This document shows, one piece after another, positions 29,046 through 64,000 of a DNA stretch of 64,000 nucleotides. Origin of the DNA: Candidatus Saccharimonadota bacterium (GTDB lineage: Bacteria; Patescibacteriota; Saccharimonadia; Saccharimonadales; Saccharimonadaceae). The notes beneath the pieces were generated by a model that searched no databases, had not been told where the DNA came from, and was given only the letters and a program-made list of their open reading frames with translations. Position 1 is the first letter of the stretch; each line of letters starts with the position of its first letter. Location of the stretch: assembly GCA_030523715.1 (NCBI GenBank), contig JAUNHY010000003.1, positions 7,201-71,200 of the forward strand, read 5' to 3'. The position numbers and the translations under genes are program-made.

Positions 29046-31016
29046 ATGAAATACGCAAAAATCATCGCAACAGCAGTGGCTATAATTTCGTTATTTGCGC
29101 CATCATATGTAAGTGCCGCAATGTGCAGTACGAATGCTGTCTGTCCTACGTCGATTGAATTTCTCGAAAAATCAGAAAATACAGTCGTACTTAATGACCC
29201 ATCAATAGACGATGCCAGTATCAATACCGATGTTAAGATGTTGGAAATTGGTGATTATATTAAATACAAGCTTTTGCTAGAAAACGCTTCGGGCGATACG
29301 TTTGAGCTGAGCGACTTATCATTCGACGATAATGAGGCCATAGCGTATTCGTTTGTTTTTACCGACAATAACAATAAAATTGCTCCAAACGAAACGAAAG
29401 AAGCCATCTTGACGATTGAATATAAAAATCCAATTGAAGATGATGATTATCTAGATAACGTATACACAGGCAATCTTAGTGCTACGCTTACTTTAATTAA
29501 GAACAATTCCACTATTAATCCCGCCACTTCTTTTGATTCACCGTTAATTCCTATTATCGCGATAGTCGCAATTATTACAGTCTCTTATGTGCTTTATCGA
29601 AAGTATGGCCGCATTCGATCGGCTGCCATTATAGTTCTATTGCTTGGCGCTTTCATCTCAATCGGCGTTTATGCTGTTGAATCTTGTGTGATAGAAATAA
29701 AAACCAAAGTTACCGTGCCAAGATATGAGGGGCGCGAAATTAATAACGTAATTATGGATAAGCCGATTATTGATGACGAGCACAGTGAATATATGGAGCC
29801 GGTCACGGGAGTGAACTTTTTGGAACCATCAAGCGACACTAACGGAAAAGGTGTCTATATCTTTGCGCCAACCAAAAATGACGAAATTCCAATTTATTAT
29901 TACCGTGGCGCCGTCAACAATAATAATTTAATCTTCGCGGATTATTGCTGGAAGATATTCCGAACCACCGAAACGGAAGGTCTTAAAATCATCTACAATG
30001 GCGTCCCAACTAATGGACGGTGCGTTGCCGAAGGAGATGACACGATGATTGCTACTGGAGTTAAATATAACGCCGCCGTAAACAATCTCAGCTATTTTGG
30101 CTATAGTTACGCGTCAAATGGCCACACTTTCAGTTATATGAATAATTCCAGAATCACTAACGGCATGATTTTTGCCAATGATGTTTCTTACGTTGACGGC
30201 CATTATGTTTTAAGCGGCGATCAATATGTTAAAGATAGTGATTTTGCAACTAATCGTGATTCTATCCTAAAAACTCACCATTACACCTGTTATGCTGTTA
30301 ATGGCACTGAATGTACTACGGTAAGATACGTCTATATGACAAGAAGTGTAAATATGTTCTATGTCACGCTCAAAAATGGTGAAAAAATCGAAGATGTCGT
30401 CAGAGATGAAGTTACCAACGAAAAAAACGAAAACAAGTCAATTGTTCGCGAAACCGTCGATAACTGGTATAGAGATCATATGACAGTGTACACGGATGAT
30501 CTTGAGGATGCCGTATGGTGCAATGACCGCAGTCTCTACGATATTGGCGGTTGGGATAAGAATAATGATGTATTCGAAATAACGAACGAGCAAGATGGCA
30601 AGATGATTTTTAATGCTAACTATCGCGTTTTCACTTCTGGCAAGCCAGACATCAATTGCGCCAATAAAAATGACGCGTTTACTGTTAGTGAAGAAAACGG
30701 CAACGGAAACCTTGAATATCCTGTAGGTTTAATGACACTCGACGAAGCGGTAATGGCCGGCTTCAACTGGTATCGTTATGACAATAGCTCCGACAACTAC
30801 CTCAATAATGGCAAAGGTTGGTGGCTGATGTCTCCATCGCTCGTGAGTGCTAATAACGTCTATGTCGGTGTCGCATATTCGAGAGTGGATCACGTTACGC
30901 CAATTTTCACCAGTAATGGTCTCGGCGGTGTCCGGCCAATGGTTTCACTCAAGAAGGGCTTTAGGGTGCAAAGCGGTGATGGCACTAGTGACAGCCCATT
31001 CATTATAGAAAAATAA
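29046..31016 (+). CDS. 656-aa surface/membrane protein
   Basis: Signal peptide (...SYVSAA), a beta-rich domain of about 130 aa, two TM helices (aa about 170-215), then a large C-terminal domain ending in a GKGWWLMSP...GGVRPMVSL motif pair. Confidence 0.6.
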   Translation: MKYAKIIATAVAIISLFAPSYVSAAMCSTNAVCPTSIEFLEKSENTVVLNDPSIDDASINTDVKMLEIGDYIKYKLLLENASGDTFELSDLSFDDNEAIAYSFVFTDNNNKIAPNETKEAILTIEYKNPIEDDDYLDNVYTGNLSATLTLIKNNSTINPATSFDSPLIPIIAIVAIITVSYVLYRKYGRIRSAAIIVLLLGAFISIGVYAVESCVIEIKTKVTVPRYEGREINNVIMDKPIIDDEHSEYMEPVTGVNFLEPSSDTNGKGVYIFAPTKNDEIPIYYYRGAVNNNNLIFADYCWKIFRTTETEGLKIIYNGVPTNGRCVAEGDDTMIATGVKYNAAVNNLSYFGYSYASNGHTFSYMNNSRITNGMIFANDVSYVDGHYVLSGDQYVKDSDFATNRDSILKTHHYTCYAVNGTECTTVRYVYMTRSVNMFYVTLKNGEKIEDVVRDEVTNEKNENKSIVRETVDNWYRDHMTVYTDDLEDAVWCNDRSLYDIGGWDKNNDVFEITNEQDGKMIFNANYRVFTSGKPDINCANKNDAFTVSEENGNGNLEYPVGLMTLDEAVMAGFNWYRYDNSSDNYLNNGKGWWLMSPSLVSANNVYVGVAYSRVDHVTPIFTSNGLGGVRPMVSLKKGFRVQSGDGTSDSPFIIEK

Positions 31017-55896: not shown

Positions 55897-56649
55897 ATGA
55901 GTATTCTTAAGGTAACAAATTTGGTAAAAACGTACGGCAAAGGCAATAATCTAGTCAAAGCCGTAGATGATGTTAGTTTTGAAGTGCCAGAAGGTGAATT
56001 TGTCGCCGTAGTTGGCGCATCTGGTTCTGGTAAATCTACGCTCTTACATTTAATTGGTGGCGTCGATAATCCTACGTCCGGCAGTATTATTGTAGATGGG
56101 GAAGACATCTCAAAATATAACTCGGATAAACTTGCTGTTTTTCGCCGCGAAAAAGTCGGAATTGTTTATCAGTTTTATAACTTAATTCCAGTTTTAAATG
56201 TTGCAGAAAATATTACATTGCCGACTGATCTTGCAAATAAAAAAGTTGATCAAGGATATCTTAAGGAATTACTCGAAACGCTCGGTTTGGCTGATCGCGT
56301 CAAACATTTGCCGAATCAATTATCTGGTGGTCAACAACAACGCGTGGCGATTGGTCGTGCGCTATTTAATCGACCAAAGCTAATTCTTGCCGACGAGCCA
56401 ACGGGCAACCTTGATAAAAAATCTAGCGACGAAATTGTTGGCTTGCTTAAGACTGCGAACCAAAAATATCATCAGACTATCATTCTTGTTACGCACGACT
56501 TAAATATCGCGTCGCAAGCAGACCGCATCATCACATTTGAAGATGGCAAAATCATTTCCGACGAGCATAAGGCAACGGAACCGGTCACTGCTGAATTAGG
56601 GCAAATTGAGCAGACAGAGATGGATAATGAAAATCCTATCGAAGCTTAA
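55897..56649 (+). CDS. ABC transporter ATP-binding protein, paralog of 53009..53692
   Basis: [35 protein letters not shown]. Confidence 0.9.
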
Positions 56650-58972
56650 TCTCGATAATTTAAAACAAAATCGTACGCGCACCATCGTGACGATTTTGGG
56701 TGTCGCGATGTCAATTATGCTGATACTGACCACTATTGGTATCGCTACCAGTTTTTGGTTTACCGAATACGATTCGATTCGCAAAGAATATGGCGATTAC
56801 CATGTTATGTTTGAGAATATTCCAGGCGACAAAGTATCTATATTGGAAAACTCGAAATTCTTTAATGTGGAGTATTATTCTGAACCGGTGGAGGCGGTTA
56901 TTGACAAAGATGGAGAACGATATCTTTATTGGTATGGCCCATATCCGGTTTCGAGCTATACGAAAATTACAGCAGATGAACTGAAGCGCGATCGGAATCA
57001 TTCATACAATGTGTTTTTGAAATATAAAGATTTCGAAAATACGCAATTTGCTGACAAAATGCAAAAACGCGCACTGGAAGAAGCCGACGTCGAGGATGTC
57101 TATGTACGATACAATAGTGATCTTCAAATGTTGGAAGGTGGTATTCCAAGAACATCACGAATTGCTCTGGCCGCATTCACTACTTTAGTGCTAGGCGTAA
57201 TGGTAATTGCAGCCGCCTTCGTGATTCGTAATTCATTTAATATTTCAATTACCGAACGCGTGCGCCAATTTGGCATGCTTTCTAGTGTCGGAGCTCGTCC
57301 ACGTCAGATTCGTCGTATGGTCTATATGGAGTCCGCAATCATCGGCTTAATTGCTTTACCGATTGGCATTGGCTTAGGTTGCCTACTAACTTTTGGCGTA
57401 GTTGTTTTATTTAATACATTATTGAGCGATATTATGGATGCGATTGGCATGGAACTAGTATTTTTTATTCCATGGCAAGCCATTATTATCATTCTAATCG
57501 TGACGGCAGTGCTAATATTTCTGTCTGCCGTTTCGCCAGCTATTGTGGCTGGGCGGTATAGCCCACTATCAGCATTGCGCAGCAACCAAGACATAAAAAT
57601 CAAGGCGCGCAAAGTACGCACCTCAAAACTTACGCGCAAAATTTGGGGCATAGGCGGCGTAATAGCACGCAAAAATCTCAAACGCAGTCGACAAAAATAT
57701 CGCACCACGGTTGTGTCGATTGTTCTAAGCGTTTCAGTGTTCATTGGCGTGATGTCGTTCATGAATTATAGCCACCGCGTTATAAATTTATTCATTAATG
57801 ATAATGGCTCAAATTTTGTAATTTATGGCAACAGCAACAGCGTGGATACCAATGAAATTGCATCTAATTTTAATCTCAAAGAGTACGCGGCCTACCATTA
57901 TATTTCTTTTGAGACCATTGGCGACGATAATCGTATGCATTTGTCGTTTACTGTCGTGTCGCGCGATGAATTTGCGCGCTACGCCAAGAAAATTGGCGCT
58001 GGTGGCTCCGATTATTCGCGCATGGTAATTCTGCACGATAACCGGAAAATATACCATTCCGACGGCAGTATCTCTAGCGGTCGTTCTACGGATTATAAAG
58101 TTGGCGACACGGTACATATCCGCTCCGTATCCTATAATCTTGATGAGGAAGATAAAACAATTAGAGAACTTATCGAAGACGGCGAGCTCGATATGGACGA
58201 TTTATATGACAAAGACGCAGAGATGACGGAAGAAGAGTTAGCCGAAAGGCTCGATGATACTATTCGAGTATACGGTAATAAAAAATATAAAGACGCAGAT
58301 TTAACGTTTACGCACATTACCGAAAAGGCACCACTCGGCTACAATGAGTCTAGCTATAGCATAGGTGAAGTATTTATTTCCGAGGACTATTATCAAATAA
58401 ACAAAATATATACTACTGATTATTATACGATGTTTATTGCAGACTCCGGTGTAGGTTCCGATATCGCGGAATTTTTAGATAGTGAGGAGATTGTTAAGAA
58501 ATATGGCATTACGAGTTATGAGAATTACGAAGAGTTAATGCGCGTAATTCGTAATACGATTTTGCTAATCGAAATACTAATCTATGGCTTTATTGTAATA
58601 GTGTCACTAATTGGCGTAACAAATATTTTCAACACAATTACCACTAATGTAGCTTTACGCGCCCGCGAATTCGCGATTATTAAATCTGTTGGCATGACTA
58701 GTAAGGAGTTTAACCATATGATTCGCCTCGAAAGCGTCATGTACAGTGCTCGTGCGTTATTAATCGGCCTGCCGATTGGTTTATTAATATCATATGGCAC
58801 GTTCAAATTATTTGACGCGGCTGGTCTTGAGTTTGGTTGGATTATCCCATGGAACGCAATTATTATTAGCGTTGCTTCAGTTGGTCTACTAGTTGCCGCC
58901 ATCATGCGTTATTCGGTACGGAAAATCAAAAGACAAAATATTATCGAAACTATCCGATCGGAAAGTTTCTAA
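56627..58972 (+). CDS. FtsX-family ABC permease, paralog of 53689..55872
   Basis: Start chosen at ATG 56627 ([29 protein letters not shown], compared with [29 protein letters not shown] in the paralog). There is an acidic insert in the external loop. Confidence 0.85.
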   Translation: MKILSKLNLDNLKQNRTRTIVTILGVAMSIMLILTTIGIATSFWFTEYDSIRKEYGDYHVMFENIPGDKVSILENSKFFNVEYYSEPVEAVIDKDGERYLYWYGPYPVSSYTKITADELKRDRNHSYNVFLKYKDFENTQFADKMQKRALEEADVEDVYVRYNSDLQMLEGGIPRTSRIALAAFTTLVLGVMVIAAAFVIRNSFNISITERVRQFGMLSSVGARPRQIRRMVYMESAIIGLIALPIGIGLGCLLTFGVVVLFNTLLSDIMDAIGMELVFFIPWQAIIIILIVTAVLIFLSAVSPAIVAGRYSPLSALRSNQDIKIKARKVRTSKLTRKIWGIGGVIARKNLKRSRQKYRTTVVSIVLSVSVFIGVMSFMNYSHRVINLFINDNGSNFVIYGNSNSVDTNEIASNFNLKEYAAYHYISFETIGDDNRMHLSFTVVSRDEFARYAKKIGAGGSDYSRMVILHDNRKIYHSDGSISSGRSTDYKVGDTVHIRSVSYNLDEEDKTIRELIEDGELDMDDLYDKDAEMTEEELAERLDDTIRVYGNKKYKDADLTFTHITEKAPLGYNESSYSIGEVFISEDYYQINKIYTTDYYTMFIADSGVGSDIAEFLDSEEIVKKYGITSYENYEELMRVIRNTILLIEILIYGFIVIVSLIGVTNIFNTITTNVALRAREFAIIKSVGMTSKEFNHMIRLESVMYSARALLIGLPIGLLISYGTFKLFDAAGLEFGWIIPWNAIIISVASVGLLVAAIMRYSVRKIKRQNIIETIRSESF

Positions 58973-58975
58973 TTA

Positions 58976-61378
58976 TTACATTCCTAGTTCTTCGCGAATC
59001 ATTTCGGTTGTGACATGAATGTCGGCGCCATTACCAACTTCGCCACTAAGCACATATTTTGCCACAATATTTTCAACCGTCTTCTGGACGATGCGGCGCA
59101 TCGGACGCGCGCCAAGTTTTGGATCGTATCCAGCATCAACAAGCAGCTTTTTACCACCCTCATCAACAGTAACATTAATCTTTTGTGGTGCCAGGGTTTT
59201 ATTAACGCCTTTCAAAATCAAGTCAATAATCTGAACTAGCACTTCCTTAGATAACGGCTCAAAGGCGCAAATCTCATCAAAGCGGTTCAAGAATTCTGGC
59301 TTAAATGCGCCAGTCTTTATTAGTTCATTCGTAAGTTCATCCTTCACTTCTGCGATACTTAATCCTTGGTCAATATAATCGCGGATTTTTTCGGCGCCCG
59401 CGTTGCTCGTTGCGATCACGATCGTGTCGCGGAAACTGACTTCTTTGTTATTAATGTCGCGCAAGATACCTTCGTCTAGCAGCTGGAGCAGGGTAGTAAG
59501 TACCTGTGGATGTGCTTTCTCGATTTCGTCTAGTAATACGACGGCAAATGGATGTTTCATGACCTGTGCCGTTAAACTCAGCTCGTCGGTAGCACCATCG
59601 GCAATTAAACGTTGAACATCTGTAGAAGAAACATATTCGTTCAAGTCGATGCGAATCATTGTGCCTTCGCCATGGAAATATACTTCGCTCAATGCTTTTG
59701 CGAGCTCGGTTTTGCCTACGCCGGTTGGACCCATGAATAAGAATGTACCGATTGGGCGATTCTCATTTCGCACGCCTGCTGCGGCGCGCCTTAGGGCATC
59801 ACTCACGGCTTTTACTGCGCCCTCCTGATCAATCATGCGTTCATGGATGAGACTTTCGAGATTAAGCAGACGCTCTTTATCTTCGTCATTATTTGTTGAC
59901 TGCATCTTTACGCCGTAGATCTTCTCAATGGCCGCCTGTACGGATGCGTCGGTGACAAAATGATGTTCATCGGCTTGGCCGGCCGCTGCTTCAAGCAGGT
60001 TTAGCGCGCGTCCTGGCATTACTAAATCGTGGACGTAACGCGAAGATAATCGATAAGCTTCCGTCAGTGCCCAGTGCGTATAAATAACATTATGTTGATA
60101 CTCAAGCTGCGGTACATGGTCTTGCATAATTTTCATTGTTTCTTCTTCGTTGGCTTCCGCAACCATGACTTTATTGAGTGCATTTGCTAACGTGCTATTA
60201 CGCGAAGATATTTCGAGGAATCTTTGCTCGTCCATCGTTAAAATGATACGTAGCTTACCGCCTTCAAGTATTGGCAGTAATACATTCGCAATATCCACCG
60301 AACCAACACCCTCTTCGAAGAATAATTGTGCATTATCAAGCCAGATAATAATATTTTTTGCCATGTAAGCTTCAGCTAGAATGTTGCGCACTAGTCTTTC
60401 AATGCCGCCATGACCTTCCGAAACACTAATCAGGGCTGCCGCATCGAGTTTAAAAATCTGGCGGAACTGGAGGCGGGAAGAAACCTTACTATCAGCATCC
60501 ATTATTTTATCCGAGAATGCCGTCACGATAGTCGAGCGTCCACTGCCTTCTGGACCAATAATTGCCACATTCTGGCGACCGCCGCTCGAGAAAATTGAGA
60601 TAATTTTTTCAACGATTTCATCGTGTGCGGCTAAATGTACCTGTTCTTTGATAGCACCCTCGCGAGATTTTGAAACATTAATTGCGAGCTCTTGTAAAAG
60701 TGGCGTATAACCGAACATTAAGTCGCGCGCAAAGCCGCCCGTATGACGAGATTTACTCATACTCTTTACCAGGCCATGCAGATAGTTGTACCACTTAATA
60801 CCATCATAAAGATCATTGAGTGTTAGCTTCATGCGACGCAAAATATCTTCGTGATTTGGATGGCATTCGATAATTGCTACTCCAAGCATTGCTCCCGCAA
60901 TTTGCTCGCCATCAGTTTTCTGCATGATTTCGCGGGCTTTTTCAAAAATTGGCGTTGCGTCTTCTGGTAAATCGGCTGCCATCAACTCAAGTAGAGCCGG
61001 AGTTACAGCATAGCGGAGTGCTAAAAAGCCGCCGCTCTGAGTTTTGCAAACCAAATCTGCAATTTGGCGCACATTTGGTTTTCGGCCGAGTAAAGTCAGT
61101 ACGTCGCGCGAAATAATATTATTAATATCATCCGGGTTGCCCGATGTTGGGCGGACTAGCTCAAATTTGAGCCAAATCACGAACATCAAGAATAGCGAAG
61201 CGATGCCGATTAGCAACCACCCCATCGATTCGTGCTGAGTGATTAAAATTGCCAGACCGCCCGCCGTTAAAGCGATCATTGCTAGAATGAGCAAAGCGGT
61301 TACGAACCAATGCCCGAATACTTTACCAAGTCTCGCCTCTTGGGCACGCAGGGAATTATATCTAAATTCGTTTTTCAT
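58976..61378 (-). CDS. Membrane-anchored two-ring Clp/Hsp100-like AAA+ protein with a degenerate D1
   Basis: Two N-terminal TM, a Clp_N-like region, D1 Walker A GPEGSGRS and Walker B IIWLDNAQ, D2 Walker A GPTGVGKT and Walker B VVLLDEIEKA, plus GARPMRR. Start at ATG 61378, which forms an ATGA overlap with the upstream gene. Confidence 0.85.
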   Translation of the reverse strand: MKNEFRYNSLRAQEARLGKVFGHWFVTALLILAMIALTAGGLAILITQHESMGWLLIGIASLFLMFVIWLKFELVRPTSGNPDDINNIISRDVLTLLGRKPNVRQIADLVCKTQSGGFLALRYAVTPALLELMAADLPEDATPIFEKAREIMQKTDGEQIAGAMLGVAIIECHPNHEDILRRMKLTLNDLYDGIKWYNYLHGLVKSMSKSRHTGGFARDLMFGYTPLLQELAINVSKSREGAIKEQVHLAAHDEIVEKIISIFSSGGRQNVAIIGPEGSGRSTIVTAFSDKIMDADSKVSSRLQFRQIFKLDAAALISVSEGHGGIERLVRNILAEAYMAKNIIIWLDNAQLFFEEGVGSVDIANVLLPILEGGKLRIILTMDEQRFLEISSRNSTLANALNKVMVAEANEEETMKIMQDHVPQLEYQHNVIYTHWALTEAYRLSSRYVHDLVMPGRALNLLEAAAGQADEHHFVTDASVQAAIEKIYGVKMQSTNNDEDKERLLNLESLIHERMIDQEGAVKAVSDALRRAAAGVRNENRPIGTFLFMGPTGVGKTELAKALSEVYFHGEGTMIRIDLNEYVSSTDVQRLIADGATDELSLTAQVMKHPFAVVLLDEIEKAHPQVLTTLLQLLDEGILRDINNKEVSFRDTIVIATSNAGAEKIRDYIDQGLSIAEVKDELTNELIKTGAFKPEFLNRFDEICAFEPLSKEVLVQIIDLILKGVNKTLAPQKINVTVDEGGKKLLVDAGYDPKLGARPMRRIVQKTVENIVAKYVLSGEVGNGADIHVTTEMIREELGM

Positions 61379-61752
61379 AGCGCCACCCCCATGATCGTCA
61401 GAATAATTGTGGCTACTGGCACCAGCGGAATAAATGGCCAAGCTAAGAAGAGAATAAAGCCGAGTGTTGCCTCTAGAGCAATTGCCAGAATGCCGGCTAT
61501 CATAATTCCAATGCGCACAATTGCGCCAATCGTTCGCGAGAGAAGTTTATCGAAAAATGCCTGCATGCGCGCTTGCATCGAAGCGTTTTCGTCGGAATAT
61601 GCGGATATTTGTCTAAACGGATAGAACAGAGTGCGCGCTAAAAGTCCCAGAGAGAAGAAATCTGCTAAGTTGTGTAGTTTATCGAGTAGTTTATGCGCAA
61701 AAGTTGACCACCCGCGCGAGTACCACCACTTCAAAAAGCCGACCATTAACAT
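61375..61752 (-). CDS. Small polytopic membrane protein translationally coupled to the AAA+ gene
   Basis: About 125 aa with hydrophobic C-terminal helices. Start taken at ATG 61752, 6 nt after TATAAT. Confidence 0.55.
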   Translation of the reverse strand: MLMVGFLKWWYSRGWSTFAHKLLDKLHNLADFFSLGLLARTLFYPFRQISAYSDENASMQARMQAFFDKLLSRTIGAIVRIGIMIAGILAIALEATLGFILFLAWPFIPLVPVATIILTIMGVAL

Positions 61753-61758
61753 AACCAA

Positions 61759-61764
61759 ATTATA
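61759..61764 (-). promoter_or_regulatory. -10 hexamer TATAAT, 6 nt upstream of ATG 61752
   Basis: Read on the reverse complement. Confidence 0.4.
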
Positions 61765-61831
61765 TAATAAAACTTGAAGAATTTCGATGCTTATGCTAAT
61801 CTAAAATCAAAGTAACAATAAGGAAACAAAA

Positions 61832-62401
61832 ATGCAAAAACAGAAAAACTTCCAGTTAGCCGTTATTGGTGTGCTCGCCTTTGCGGTTATTTTCATGTCT
61901 GTCGGCTTCGCGGCCTATTCACAGACACTAAATATCAACGGTACAACCACAGTTCAGGGCAACAAGTGGAGCGTCCATTTTGATACTGCCACCTTCCAGC
62001 GCGCTGAGGGTTCCGTTGTGGAAACCAGTAAGAGCGTTAGCAACACTTCTATTACTTATGCTGCCACGCTCGAGAAGCCAGGCAACAAATTTGCTTTTAC
62101 TATTGATGTTGTGAACGACGGTACTTTTGATGCCACTCTAAATAAGATTACACTCTCAACGCTCACGGAAGAGCAGGCTAAATATCTAAAATACACGCTT
62201 GTTTACGATAATGATTCTGACAATCCATATACGGCCACAACTAGCGGCCTCAGCATCGGTTTGCCACATACTACCGGCTCAAACCGTAAGCCGGTAATGG
62301 TTGTAGTCGAATATGTCGCCCCAGACAACGCCGATGATCTTCCAGAATCGAGCGTAGCCATCAGCCTTACTGCCGCTCTTGATTACGTCCAAGCAGAATA
62401 A
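61832..62401 (+). CDS. Secreted beta-rich protein with a SipW-cognate-like signal peptide (TasA/camelysin-like)
   Basis: The N-terminus ...VIFMSVGFAAYSQTLNINGT resembles the GGT.A.F.D cleavage region of TasA/CalY-type signals. SD AAGGA upstream. Lies immediately upstream of a SipW-type peptidase. Confidence 0.45.
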   Translation: MQKQKNFQLAVIGVLAFAVIFMSVGFAAYSQTLNINGTTTVQGNKWSVHFDTATFQRAEGSVVETSKSVSNTSITYAATLEKPGNKFAFTIDVVNDGTFDATLNKITLSTLTEEQAKYLKYTLVYDNDSDNPYTATTSGLSIGLPHTTGSNRKPVMVVVEYVAPDNADDLPESSVAISLTAALDYVQAE

Positions 62402-62439
62402 TTAACTACCTATTTCCGGTTTGAAATAGGCATAAAACT

Positions 62440-63594
62440 ATGCATTTTTTAACAAACGAGAAGAAAATTCGTTTATTCGAATTGTTGATGCTTGTCTCTG
62501 CGCTCATCTTCTGCGTAATATTTTCGAGCGCCACGAGTTTATTTAAAACATATGCCATCATTCTCTCGTTTGTCCTTATCTTCTCAATTAGTGTAATAGC
62601 GATTGGCTACCGCAGGGATAAACATTATCTCCGCGGTAGTGCGTCGCGCACGATCATTGCAGTATTACTAGCTGCACTAATTTTGATTTTTATGCTGGGC
62701 GTATTCCTTGGCTTTAATCGAAGTTATGCTTCGCTAGATATATCCAAAAATCTGCAAGGTTTCGTTCCAGCACTTTTATTGGCAGTCATAACCGAATTAT
62801 TGCGACATACGTTATTAAGGAAAAATGTCGTAAAAACTATAGATGTTGTATTTTTTACAACAATAACTTCAATTATATGCATATTACTAGCGTTCAATCC
62901 TGCCACAATCGTCGATGCCGAGTCGGCCTTTATCTTTATTTGCACGATTATCCTTCCAATAATTGCAACCGAAACACTTTGTACTTTCTTGGTTCGACAT
63001 ATTGGGCTCCAACCGAGCCTTACTTACAAAATCCCCATTAAAGTTTACATGTACATTCTGCCGATTATTCCAAATCTCGGCTCTTATCTTTATGCCGTGA
63101 CGGCTATTGTGATGCCGTTTGTCATTTATCACTTGGTCTTAAAGCTTGAGTCGTTCGATCGCAATGCGGCCGTACGCATTCATAAAATGAATAGTGGGAT
63201 TATAGCAATTCCGGCGACTCTATTCTTAATTACAGTCGTAATATTCGTTTCGGGTATCTTTAAATTCCAGCTGATCGCCGTGGGGTCAAATTCGATGGCG
63301 GGGACATTCGACCGCGGCGATGCTGTGATGATAGAGAAAACCAACCCCAAAACGGTTAAGGATAATGATATAATTGCATTTAGGAAAGACGGGATGATTA
63401 TTACGCACCGCGTCGTCGAAACGCACATTACGGACAATCGTTATGAGTTTATTACAAAGGGGGATGCGAATGATGATATTGATAGCTTTACGACTGGCGG
63501 CGAGAACCTCATAGGCATAATTCGCTTCCGCACAAAGTATATTGGCTTTCCAACTCTTTGGATAAACGAATTATTTAATAAGGAAATAGAATGA
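62440..63594 (+). CDS. Polytopic membrane domain fused to a SipW-type (S26B) signal peptidase I domain
   Basis: About 8 TM in the first 260 aa. The C-terminal AVGSNSMAGTFDRGDAVMIEK...IIAFRKDGMIITHRVVE...ITKGDANDDID parallels the SipW SGSMEP...GDVI...THRI...TKGDNN pattern (Ser/His type). Confidence 0.7.
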   Translation: MHFLTNEKKIRLFELLMLVSALIFCVIFSSATSLFKTYAIILSFVLIFSISVIAIGYRRDKHYLRGSASRTIIAVLLAALILIFMLGVFLGFNRSYASLDISKNLQGFVPALLLAVITELLRHTLLRKNVVKTIDVVFFTTITSIICILLAFNPATIVDAESAFIFICTIILPIIATETLCTFLVRHIGLQPSLTYKIPIKVYMYILPIIPNLGSYLYAVTAIVMPFVIYHLVLKLESFDRNAAVRIHKMNSGIIAIPATLFLITVVIFVSGIFKFQLIAVGSNSMAGTFDRGDAVMIEKTNPKTVKDNDIIAFRKDGMIITHRVVETHITDNRYEFITKGDANDDIDSFTTGGENLIGIIRFRTKYIGFPTLWINELFNKEIE

Positions 63595-64000
63595 AAGAGA
63601 AGCTCGAAAAACTAAAAATCGGACCAGTAACTGCGCTAATTGCGGCCTGCTTATTGATGATTTTTGGTGTTTTTGCGACTATTTTTGGCTTTAATACAAA
63701 AAAGATTGTCTCAATCAACTATTCCGACCAAGGTACGATTGACTATAAAGTCTATCTCAAGGAAAACCGTTTCTTTGACACTCCGTATTTACCGGCCGGT
63801 CGCACTTATATTACGAACCTCATTAACTATCTTGATGTAGATATGAACTACGAACTCTATTTTGATGAGCCAGTGAATGTTAATTATAGCTACTATTACG
63901 TTGCGACCATCAGTGCTGCCAAAAATTCCAACACGCCAACGGCAAACAAGAATGAATATTGGAGCAAAGATTACAATTTAACCGAACAAGTAGATAAAAC
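63591..64000 (+). CDS. Membrane-anchored protein, 3' end outside window (possibly DUF5305-like)
   Basis: ATGA overlap with the peptidase gene. Hand-translated as MKEKLEKLKIGPVTALIAACLLMIFGVFATIFG...IDYKVYLKENRFFDTPYLPAG.... The frame stays open to the window end. Confidence 0.5.
   Translation, partial: MKEKLEKLKIGPVTALIAACLLMIFGVFATIFGFNTKKIVSINYSDQGTIDYKVYLKENRFFDTPYLPAGRTYITNLINYLDVDMNYELYFDEPVNVNYSYYYVATISAAKNSNTPTANKNEYWSKDYNLTEQVDK

Follow-up and report, generated by a model that had tools for sequence, protein, structure and literature searches.

What does a member of the Saccharibacteria export with a signal peptidase of its own, encoded next to a small secreted protein of no recognized family? 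The question is raised by three tightly packed plus strand genes that close a 64,000-nucleotide stretch of Candidatus Saccharimonadota DNA (contig JAUNHY010000003.1 of assembly GCA_030523715.1, positions 7,201 to 71,200; hereafter, the window). The open reading frames (ORFs) lie exactly where the initial annotation of this DNA had placed them, the second and third overlapping as ATGA, and its expectation that the operon runs on past the window is borne out. The third gene continues beyond the last nucleotide, and three contigs encoding an identical second protein (L001–L003, in the numbering used here for loci fetched from other assemblies) complete a cassette of four genes, designated g1 to g4, in which a g3 of 356 amino acids (aa) is followed after 2 nt by a g4 of 794 aa and a convergent methyltransferase gene closes the unit downstream. 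In GenBank, g1 and g4 are hypothetical proteins, while g2 and g3 carry generic names; a reading of the cassette as a system would be transferable to about a hundred species. The reading favored here, with a probability of roughly 60%, is that the cassette encodes a secreted surface fibre of the TasA-superfamily type, together with private machinery for its processing.

The C-terminal domain of g2 is, as judged from its sequence, a Ser/His signal peptidase of the S26B type found in archaea and the endoplasmic reticulum, the class to which SEC11 and SipW belong. Residues 262–373 match the NCBIfam model for archaeal-type signal peptidase I (TIGR02228) with 68.1 bits, above the curated cut-off of 51.85, and Pfam Peptidase_S26 with 23.5 bits, just over the cut-off of 22.9. 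A profile built on 25 members of the g2 family matches human SEC11C at 2e-21 and SEC11A at 1e-20, aligning Ser285-Met286, His323-Arg324, Asp342 and Asp348 with the SEC11A/C motifs SGSMEP, HRV and KGDNN..D. The two aspartates sit in G-D-A-N-D-D-I-D, and Ser285, His323, Asp342 and Asp348 are each conserved in at least 90% of the 25 members. Furthermore, Foldseek returns the SEC11A/C chains 7P2P_A and 7P2Q_A as the top Protein Data Bank (PDB) matches of the g2 beta domain (E 3e-5, target TM-score 0.62). The initial annotation had assigned this domain to the S26B Ser/His class from the motifs GSNSM (Ser285), RGD, ITHRV (His323) and KGDANDD (Asp342, Asp348); the motifs are all present, the catalytic Ser and His can be aligned with those of SEC11, and the assignment holds. 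Its description of the enzyme as SipW-type is accurate for the class, but not for the family, since g2 scores only 48.8 bits against the SipW equivalog model (NF046067), which has a cut-off of 190. By these scores, g2 is of the same class as SipW without being a SipW orthologue.

Ahead of the peptidase, the AlphaFold2 model of g2 (predicted local distance difference test score, pLDDT, 81) contains eight helices spanning residues 6–238, a ninth helix that would anchor the beta-rich domain, and then the beta-rich domain itself, in line with the earlier proposal of a peptidase appended to a polytopic N-terminal domain. Because clusters of Lys and Arg occupy alternate loops, as expected from the positive-inside rule, the N-terminus is predicted to be inside and the peptidase outside. 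In Foldseek searches, the helical domain matches SpdC of S. aureus (6U0O_A; E 5e-3, 261 columns, TM-score 0.52) and the CAAX protease Rce1 (4CAD; TM-score 0.53). No other polytopic protein appears in the first 50 matches of g2, and the eight-helix domain is therefore, in its modelled structure, CPBP/Rce1-like in fold. No family is assigned to it in Pfam or NCBIfam. A profile search with this domain was saturated by its own family and returned no remote relatives, a word-indexed search added none, and the fetched loci held no bona fide CPBP protein that could have served in a profile–profile test. The membrane-domain profile matches 1511 protein clusters (50% identity), and among the best 150 of these nearly all are fusions of 360–410 residues or shorter, possibly truncated, proteins. 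The fusion is thus common and not peculiar to this genome, contrary to the suggestion that it was unusual and linked to genome reduction. No published CPBP–signal peptidase fusion was found in the literature, and the fused peptidase family is a large one whose membrane domain still lacks a family annotation.

The third gene adds a probable partner for the peptidase. Full-length g3 aligns with positions 1–197 of the 217 in the Pfam DUF5305 profile (PF17231) at 26.3 bits, slightly less than the cut-off of 29; the 136-aa fragment encoded within the window gives no match by itself. DUF5305 is matched by 39 of 40 g3 orthologues, with a best value of 1.3e-22, and g3 is on this evidence a DUF5305 family protein, as the initial annotation had thought worth checking. 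Two hydrophobic segments (residues 16–32 and 241–257) enclose an outer part of about 200 residues and are followed by some 100 residues on the inside, and this succession of membrane helix, ectodomain, membrane helix and cytoplasmic part reproduces the published layout of DUF5305 proteins in the Tafi and AbpX loci discussed below. In those loci DUF5305 proteins lie beside dedicated signal peptidases, to which they are sometimes fused, and have been proposed to be accessory to them (PMC11821415; bioRxiv 10.64898/2026.01.04.697558). The initial annotation had listed g3 as a further anchored protein; it is a two-pass protein and more likely an accessory of the peptidase than its cargo.

Identifying the presumed cargo is a different matter, since the 113 clusters of g1 homologues include none with a functional name (a few are named “hypothetical protein”) and, apart from one DUF11 match, none with a Pfam domain. 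The AlphaFold2 model of g1 (pLDDT 88) consists of a helix (residues 3–24), an unstructured stretch (25–47; pLDDT 57–60) and a nine-strand sandwich (48–187; about 95). The most conserved segment of the protein is the unstructured one: across 54 sequences G25, A27 and L33 never vary, and F26, I35 and G37 hardly do. Across 129 homologues of g1 and g4, a basic n-region and a hydrophobic stretch of about 18 residues lead into the consensus M-[ST]-[VI]-G-F-A-A-Y-x-Q-x-L-x-I-x-G, in which the G is conserved in 100% of sequences and the first A in 95%. These small residues fall at −3 and −1 of an expected cut at G-F-A/A-Y. The same position is suggested by TasA, the mature form of which starts at A28 in the fibre structure 8AUR, within a region (G-T-W-A/A-F-N-D) that parallels the G-F-A/A-Y-S-Q of g1. 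By this analogy and the −3/−1 rule, g1 is predicted to be cleaved between A27 and A28. The signal region singled out in the initial annotation (GFAAYSQTLNINGT) is present in the 189-aa g1, and its likeness to the TasA signal is apparent in this comparison. Residues 25–41 are accordingly proposed to play two roles, as the recognition site of the peptidase and, once freed, as a donor strand. In Foldseek searches with g1, the TasA fibre ranks first (8AUR, E 1.4e-3) and the cannulae of Pyrodictium second (9H8B), with CanA (7UII) in 24th place and the chaperone-usher pilins PapK and PapG also among the lower ranks.

A possible relative of g1 is encoded elsewhere in the window (29046–31016, plus strand). 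This ORF of 656 aa begins with a classical signal peptide, and its residues 41–149 match the profile of the g1-family sandwich with an E-value of 4e-7 among window ORFs. Behind the sandwich, NPATS, a hydrophobic helix and a basic tail form what looks like a sorting signal for sortase; a second hydrophobic stretch then precedes G-V-Y-A-V-E-S-C-V-I-E-I, a degenerate form of the G-F-A-A-Y motif. The protein may be a second substrate of the system or a paralogue of its fibre subunit.

The large protein g4 repeats the architecture of g1 at its start. A hidden Markov model (HMM) built exclusively from small subunits aligns, over most of its length, with the first 165 or so residues of the large g4 proteins, which therefore open with a complete g1-like module. 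This is followed in g4 by an FN3 domain (residues 311–407) and by a Hint domain starting at Cys504, after which come about 150 conserved residues ending in a motif like the Listeria–Bacteroides repeat.

The association of these genes is widely conserved. A genome scan with one genome per species located relatives of g2 in 113 species, of which the best 80 loci were fetched. The order g1-g2-g3(-g4) on one strand is maintained in nearly all of them (about 80 species), with the large subunit as the usual last gene; g2 adjoins g1 in all 83 loci, and other assemblies carry identical copies of the operon. The cassette is real and not a chance arrangement, and the conserved neighborhood anticipated in the initial annotation is found. 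In some Saccharibacteria, g1-g2-g3 stand alone at the same chromosomal site, between a ClpB-like gene and the methyltransferase gene, and the three genes of the window therefore make up the core, from which the large subunit is dispensable. According to their metagenome-assembled genome (MAG) records, about a quarter of the loci belong to Saccharibacteria and the others to Bacilli, Erysipelotrichaceae, Tenericutes/Mollicutes and Clostridia, mostly from gut and rumen; outside the Saccharibacteria, the carriers are gut Firmicutes with small genomes. Clustering of g2 by identity places the copies from Saccharibacteria in one cluster and the others in about fifteen, a pattern that suggests a Firmicutes origin of the cassette with one old transfer. 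In a genome labelled Candidatus Nanosyncoccus (L080, 8001–9014), g2 clusters with Firmicutes-labelled copies (42% identity, versus 29% to Saccharibacteria), which points to a second transfer or to a binning error. Two complete cassettes occur in tandem in the Firmicutes-labelled loci L020, L029, L041, L042, L047 and L060, and the second DUF5305 gene is longer (489–560 aa) in some of the tandem-cassette genomes. Additional stand-alone peptidase-like ORFs of about 190–200 aa are seen near the cassette in L037, L040, L071 and L082.

The 38 nt between g1 and g2 hold a stem-loop with a minimum free energy of −9.8 kcal/mol (z −3.2), which none of 200 shuffled sequences equalled. Strong hairpins (z at or below −3.5), unrelated in sequence and with stems of 8–19 bp, are found at this place in 33 of 65 related cassettes, and in other cassettes the small-subunit and peptidase genes abut or overlap. 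The hairpin is a possible attenuator that would leave mRNA for the subunit in excess over that for the machinery.

In the proposed mechanism, g1 as the major subunit and g4 as a large minor subunit would enter the membrane through their long signal-anchors, and the outward SEC11-like domain (Ser285/His323) of the nine-helix g2 would cut them after G-F-A. The CPBP-like domain, with its catalytic His lost, would probably act as a scaffold that grips the long signal-anchor together with the two-pass g3, in a manner comparable to the accessory subunits of the eukaryotic signal peptidase complex. The freed strand, A-Y-S-Q-T-L-N-I-N-G-T, would then insert into the beta-sandwich of a neighboring subunit by donor-strand complementation, g4 would cap or anchor the fibre by means of its FN3 and Hint domains, and the hairpin after g1 would keep the subunit mRNA in excess.

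Several results weigh against this proposal. The fold matches of g1 are weak (TM-scores of 0.31–0.37 for the TasA fibre, and of 0.30–0.38 for the TasA fibre, the cannula and CanA together), with scores almost equalled by those of many unrelated beta-sandwiches. Neither Peptidase_M73 (PF12389) nor any NCBIfam family matches g1 at E ≤ 1, and the profile of the g1 family finds no match among PDB sequences. A direct hhalign comparison of g1 with TasA (its sequence verified against 8AUR) gives a probability of 1.8%. The model for SipW-cognate signals, presumably included as TIGR04088 in the library scanned, likewise gives no match to g1, and the likeness of the g1 signal to that of TasA is one of pattern (G-F-A-A-Y-S-Q against G-T-W-A-A-F-N-D). 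The assignment of the g2 membrane domain to the CPBP fold comes from structure comparison; CPBP is absent from the Pfam families listed for 25 g2 members (25 of 31 families) and from the NCBIfam families listed for the N-domains of 18 members. Lastly, no cell-wall anchor was identified. The family as a whole gives a similar picture: in a Pfam scan of 54 g1 homologues, Peptidase_M73 matched none at E ≤ 1 and only weak DUF11- or CARDB-like matches appeared, those to DUF11 in 25 of the 54. The sole local similarity between g1 and TasA reported by hhalign, a L-K-P-G-D...N-x-G strand motif, is not significant and is common in sandwich domains. The initial annotation had called g1 TasA/camelysin-like; sequence comparison does not support the label, which draws on a weak fold match and on genomic context. 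PDB sequences likewise offer no match to CPBP from the g2-family profile.

These same results invite a reading without a fibre, in which the cassette exports and matures surface proteins that do not polymerize, g1 being a monomeric sandwich of the wall or membrane, g4 a large adhesin, and g2 and g3 a peptidase specialized for long signal-anchors. The evidence on g2 and g3 fits such a system equally well, the match of g1 to fibre subunits is weak and unaccompanied by a sequence link to TasA, and the FN3/Ig modules of g4 are adhesin-like. The reading is nonetheless considered rather unlikely. The top-conserved segment of g1 lies just past the predicted cleavage site and outside the monomer fold, a placement hard to explain by cleavage alone, and the whole g1 module recurs in g4, as in the minor and tip subunits of fibres assembled by donor strands. 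The hairpin after the small-subunit gene would also fit a structural subunit made in excess, DUF5305 accompanies Tafi and AbpX-like loci, and the studied systems that combine an S26B peptidase with a subunit (TasA, Tafi, and AbpX with its presumed peptidase) all build fibres.

Comparison with those systems helps to place the surface fibre proposed here. In B. subtilis, SipW processes TasA, which polymerizes by donor-strand exchange, and the three-gene tapA-sipW-tasA operon is not known to include DUF5305 or a Hint-bearing subunit, both of which the cassette possesses. The two have in common a dedicated S26B Ser/His peptidase, a secreted beta-sandwich subunit and a cleavage context of the form aromatic-A/A-aromatic-polar. 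They differ in that SipW has no membrane helices other than terminal anchors, that g2 falls far short of the SipW equivalog model and that g1 has no match to Peptidase_M73. The cassette has no TapA homologue, and the parallel with the tapA-sipW-tasA module drawn in the initial annotation therefore fails on this gene.

Further counterparts come from recent work. The AbpX loci encode a TasA-superfamily biomatrix of archaea, Bacillota and Chloroflexota (bioRxiv 10.64898/2026.01.04.697558; Nat Commun 2025, PMC12518558), and according to the January 2026 preprint the AbpX-linked signal peptidases of bacteria and archaea have ten transmembrane helices and are accompanied by DUF5305, minor subunits and tip proteins (bioRxiv 10.64898/2026.01.04.697558). 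Like the cassette, these loci combine a small beta-sandwich subunit that bears a signal and has about 160 residues when mature, an adjoining signal peptidase I of the TIGR02228 class (described there with ten rather than two transmembrane helices), a DUF5305 protein with the same ectodomain, two-helix and cytoplasmic layout, and minor or tip subunits that repeat the subunit fold. On the other hand, AbpX is 30–35% identical to TasA-family proteins, whereas g1 has no detectable similarity to TasA in sequence and no Cys pair. The nine helices of g2, compared with the ten given in the published description of the AbpX-linked enzymes, reflect the lack of a C-terminal transmembrane helix. The preprint makes no mention of a CPBP-like fold, a Hint-bearing subunit or Saccharibacteria. 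In the Tat-fimbriae (Tafi) of Haloarcula hispanica, the subunits TafA/C/E/F are encoded with the peptidase TafD and the DUF5305 protein TafG (PMC11821415). Here too an S26-type peptidase is dedicated to the system (TafD is genetically required for TafA processing) and has a DUF5305 partner gene, donor-strand exchange has been modelled, and the N-terminal part of the large accessory subunits resembles the major subunit (PMC11821415), as would be the case in the proposed fibre. Tafi is archaeal, however, and has a regulator gene in its locus; its subunits carry Tat signals, in contrast to the Lys-rich Sec-type signal-anchors of g1 and g4, and TafD places the peptidase first, followed by four transmembrane helices and a second outside domain, whereas in g2 the peptidase comes at the end, behind eight helices.

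Among solved structures, the nearest relative of the g2 catalytic domain, by sequence as well as by fold, is the eukaryotic signal peptidase complex (SEC11A/C with SPCS1-3; 7P2P, 7P2Q). In both systems, the catalytic subunit operates amid additional membrane helices and beside a partner whose beta domain lies in the lumen or outside the cell. In g2, unlike in the eukaryotic complex, these helices are part of the same chain and have a CPBP-like fold in the model. A search of solved structures with the DUF5305 profile yielded none that would link DUF5305 to SPCS subunits, so the analogy is one of function and not of homology. The g2 protein offers a single-chain bacterial model for the way in which extra helices aid a SEC11-type peptidase in choosing its substrates. 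In summary of these comparisons, loci of this kind have recently been described (Tafi and AbpX, 2025–26), and what is new is the host phylum, a subunit that is not detectably TasA-like in sequence, the CPBP-like fold of the extra helices and the Hint-bearing large subunit. The initial annotation's proposal that the genes serve the assembly of a fibre or appendage agrees with the Tafi and AbpX literature.

The Hint domain of g4 could take the system further. Its profile matches the PDB Hint domains 6Y75 and 6TMM (E 6e-7, 144 columns), Pfam Hint families are matched in up to 23 of 29 g4-family members, and the Cys, the G-T, the His of block B and the N...T.D are invariant, C-[LVF]-x-x-G-T being kept in 40 of 42 long homologues. 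The domain was also considered as an intein, and this was ruled out: g4 lacks the C-terminal H-N plus Cys/Ser/Thr junction of inteins, the block ending instead in N-V-I-A-N-D-x-L-T-T-D-G. It would therefore resemble the Hedgehog and BIL-type domains, which act on their N-terminal side only, and its sequence hints at a cell-surface role in autoprocessing or covalent transfer, either of which would be easy to test. In a bolder version, the CPBP-like domain of g2 would capture or cleave the signal-anchor within the membrane, making g2 a one-chain analogue of the signal peptidase complex, while the Hint domain of g4 would cut at Cys504 through a thioester and attach the fibre-bearing N-terminal half, in Hedgehog fashion, to a lipid, to an amine of the cell wall or to a host-cell molecule. 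This combination is distinctly improbable as a whole. If true, the transfer would amount to covalent anchoring without a sortase, which would account for the success of the cassette in wall-less or reduced lineages and among the epibiotic Saccharibacteria.

Could the membrane domain of g2 be a protease in its own right? CPBP proteases carry the catalytic motifs EExxxR (motif 1), FxxxH (motif 2) and HxxxN/D (motif 3), and the CPBP-family myxosortase processes sorting tags. A two-protease machine can thus be envisaged, in which an active CPBP-like domain cuts near the cytoplasmic face, clearing the signal-anchor or performing a second processing step, and the S26B domain cuts outside. Within the membrane domains of 25 members, G87, E119, R122 and P208 are invariant and F164 is also conserved; E119-x-x-R122 lies at the cytoplasmic end of helix 4, where CPBP motif 1 is found, and P208 belongs to L-P-I-x-P-N-L-G. 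The invariance of E119 and R122 in all 25 members favors an active enzyme, as do the match to the active protease Rce1, no worse than that to the partner protein SpdC, and the persistence of the fusion across more than a thousand clusters, which argues for tightly coupled functions. The likeness to the CPBP/Rce1/Abi proteins, including SpdC (6U0O, 4CAD), comprises the eight-helix bundle (about 260 columns at TM-scores of about 0.52–0.53) and the acidic/basic pair on helix 4. It does not extend to the motifs themselves: g2 has E-x-x-R in place of EExxxR, only E119-x-x-R122 and F164 are kept, motifs 2 and 3 lack their His and have no conserved His or Asn counterpart, the membrane domain as a whole contains no conserved His, and there is no similarity at the HMM level. 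Moreover, the C-terminus of g1 offers a sorting protease no hydrophobic tag to act on. An active second protease is for these reasons very unlikely, and the CPBP-like domain is probably a non-catalytic scaffold in the manner of SpdC, as the fibre model supposes.

A type IV pilin-like system, with G/F-A-A-Y as a class III prepilin motif, or a bacteriocin with a CPBP/Abi immunity module hardly merits belief and was rejected, for although G-F superficially recalls the prepilin G/F-T-L-x-E and an association of CPBP/Abi proteins with bacteriocin immunity is frequent, the hydrophobic helix of g1 precedes G-F-A, no Glu stands at +5, the peptidase present is S26B, the four cassette proteins include no prepilin peptidase, ATPase or platform protein, and a 162-aa beta-sandwich with a 794-aa multidomain homologue is unlike bacteriocin loci.

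Saccharibacteria live attached to other bacteria, and type IV pili are, to our knowledge, the only surface appendages that have been studied in them; no paper linking these bacteria to TasA-like systems was found in the literature. A TasA-type fibre, if true, would be a second appendage and would add a candidate means by which gut and rumen members attach to their hosts or aggregate. The g1-g3 core, at roughly 3.5 kb, is compact enough for heterologous expression.

Table 1. Features of the cassette and its counterparts. Positions refer to the window unless a fetched locus (L) is named.
Feature	Position	Strand	Basis or content
Operon leader, intergenic	61759..61831	+	Shine-Dalgarno-like AAGGA at 61820-61824, 7 nt before the g1 ATG
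g1, 189 aa, presumed major fibre subunit	61832..62401	+	Signal-anchor aa 1-27, strand motif aa 25-41, beta-sandwich aa 48-187; GenBank MDO4219855.1, “hypothetical protein” (Candidatus Saccharibacteria MAG)
g1 signal-anchor	61832..61912	+	Lys-rich n-region, hydrophobic helix of 18-19 residues ending V-G-F-A; predicted cleavage A27/A28
g1 conserved motif G-F-A-A-Y-S-Q-T-L-N-I-N-G-T-T-T-V	61904..61954	+	Conservation in 54 sequences
g1 beta-sandwich core, aa 48-187	61973..62392	+	Contains L-x-K-P-G-[DN]...V-x-N-D-G motif
Stem-loop between g1 and g2	62407..62432	+	Folding energy compared with shuffles
g2, 384 aa, predicted eight-helix CPBP-like domain, anchor helix and S26B signal peptidase	62440..63594	+	ORF, profiles, model; GenBank MDO4219856.1, “signal peptidase I” (same MAG)
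g2 eight-helix membrane domain, aa 1-238	62440..63153	+	AlphaFold2 helices, Foldseek
g2 ninth helix, aa 241-271, predicted peptidase membrane anchor	63160..63252	+	Hydrophobic segment and model
g2 S26B signal peptidase domain, aa 272-384	63253..63591	+	TIGR02228, SEC11 alignment, Foldseek
g2 catalytic codon, Ser285	63292-63294	+	
g2 catalytic codon, His323	63406-63408	+	
g3, first 136 of 356 aa	63591..64000	+	First membrane helix aa 16-32 and start of extracellular domain; full gene L001 11152-12222; GenBank MDO4219857.1, “DUF5305 family protein” (same MAG)
g4, 794 aa, just beyond the window end	L001 12225-14609		GenBank MDO4219858.1, “hypothetical protein” (same MAG)
Cassettes without the Hint-bearing large subunit	L012 7432-10199; likewise L013-L017, L019, L021, L074		
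Hairpins in the g1-g2 gap	62407-62432; L007, L020, L024-L026, L030, L032-L037, L045, L048-L056, others		

A consensus scan found no plus strand promoter site in the leader, and the counts of the promoter and terminator consensus scans were at chance level. Upstream of the cassette, on the minus strand (58976–61441), lies the ClpB-like gene, encoding an 821-aa ClpA/B-type protein with two AAA+ domains and two predicted membrane helices near its N-terminus; a membrane-anchored unfoldase of the Clp type is unusual. The gene is the upstream neighbor of the cassette in other Saccharibacteria as well (L012, 4582–7047). Beyond it (56606–58972 in the window, plus strand, and 549–6533 in L001) are two successive pairs of an ABC ATPase and a large FtsX-domain permease, the permeases being MacB-like and 727 and 781–788 aa in length.

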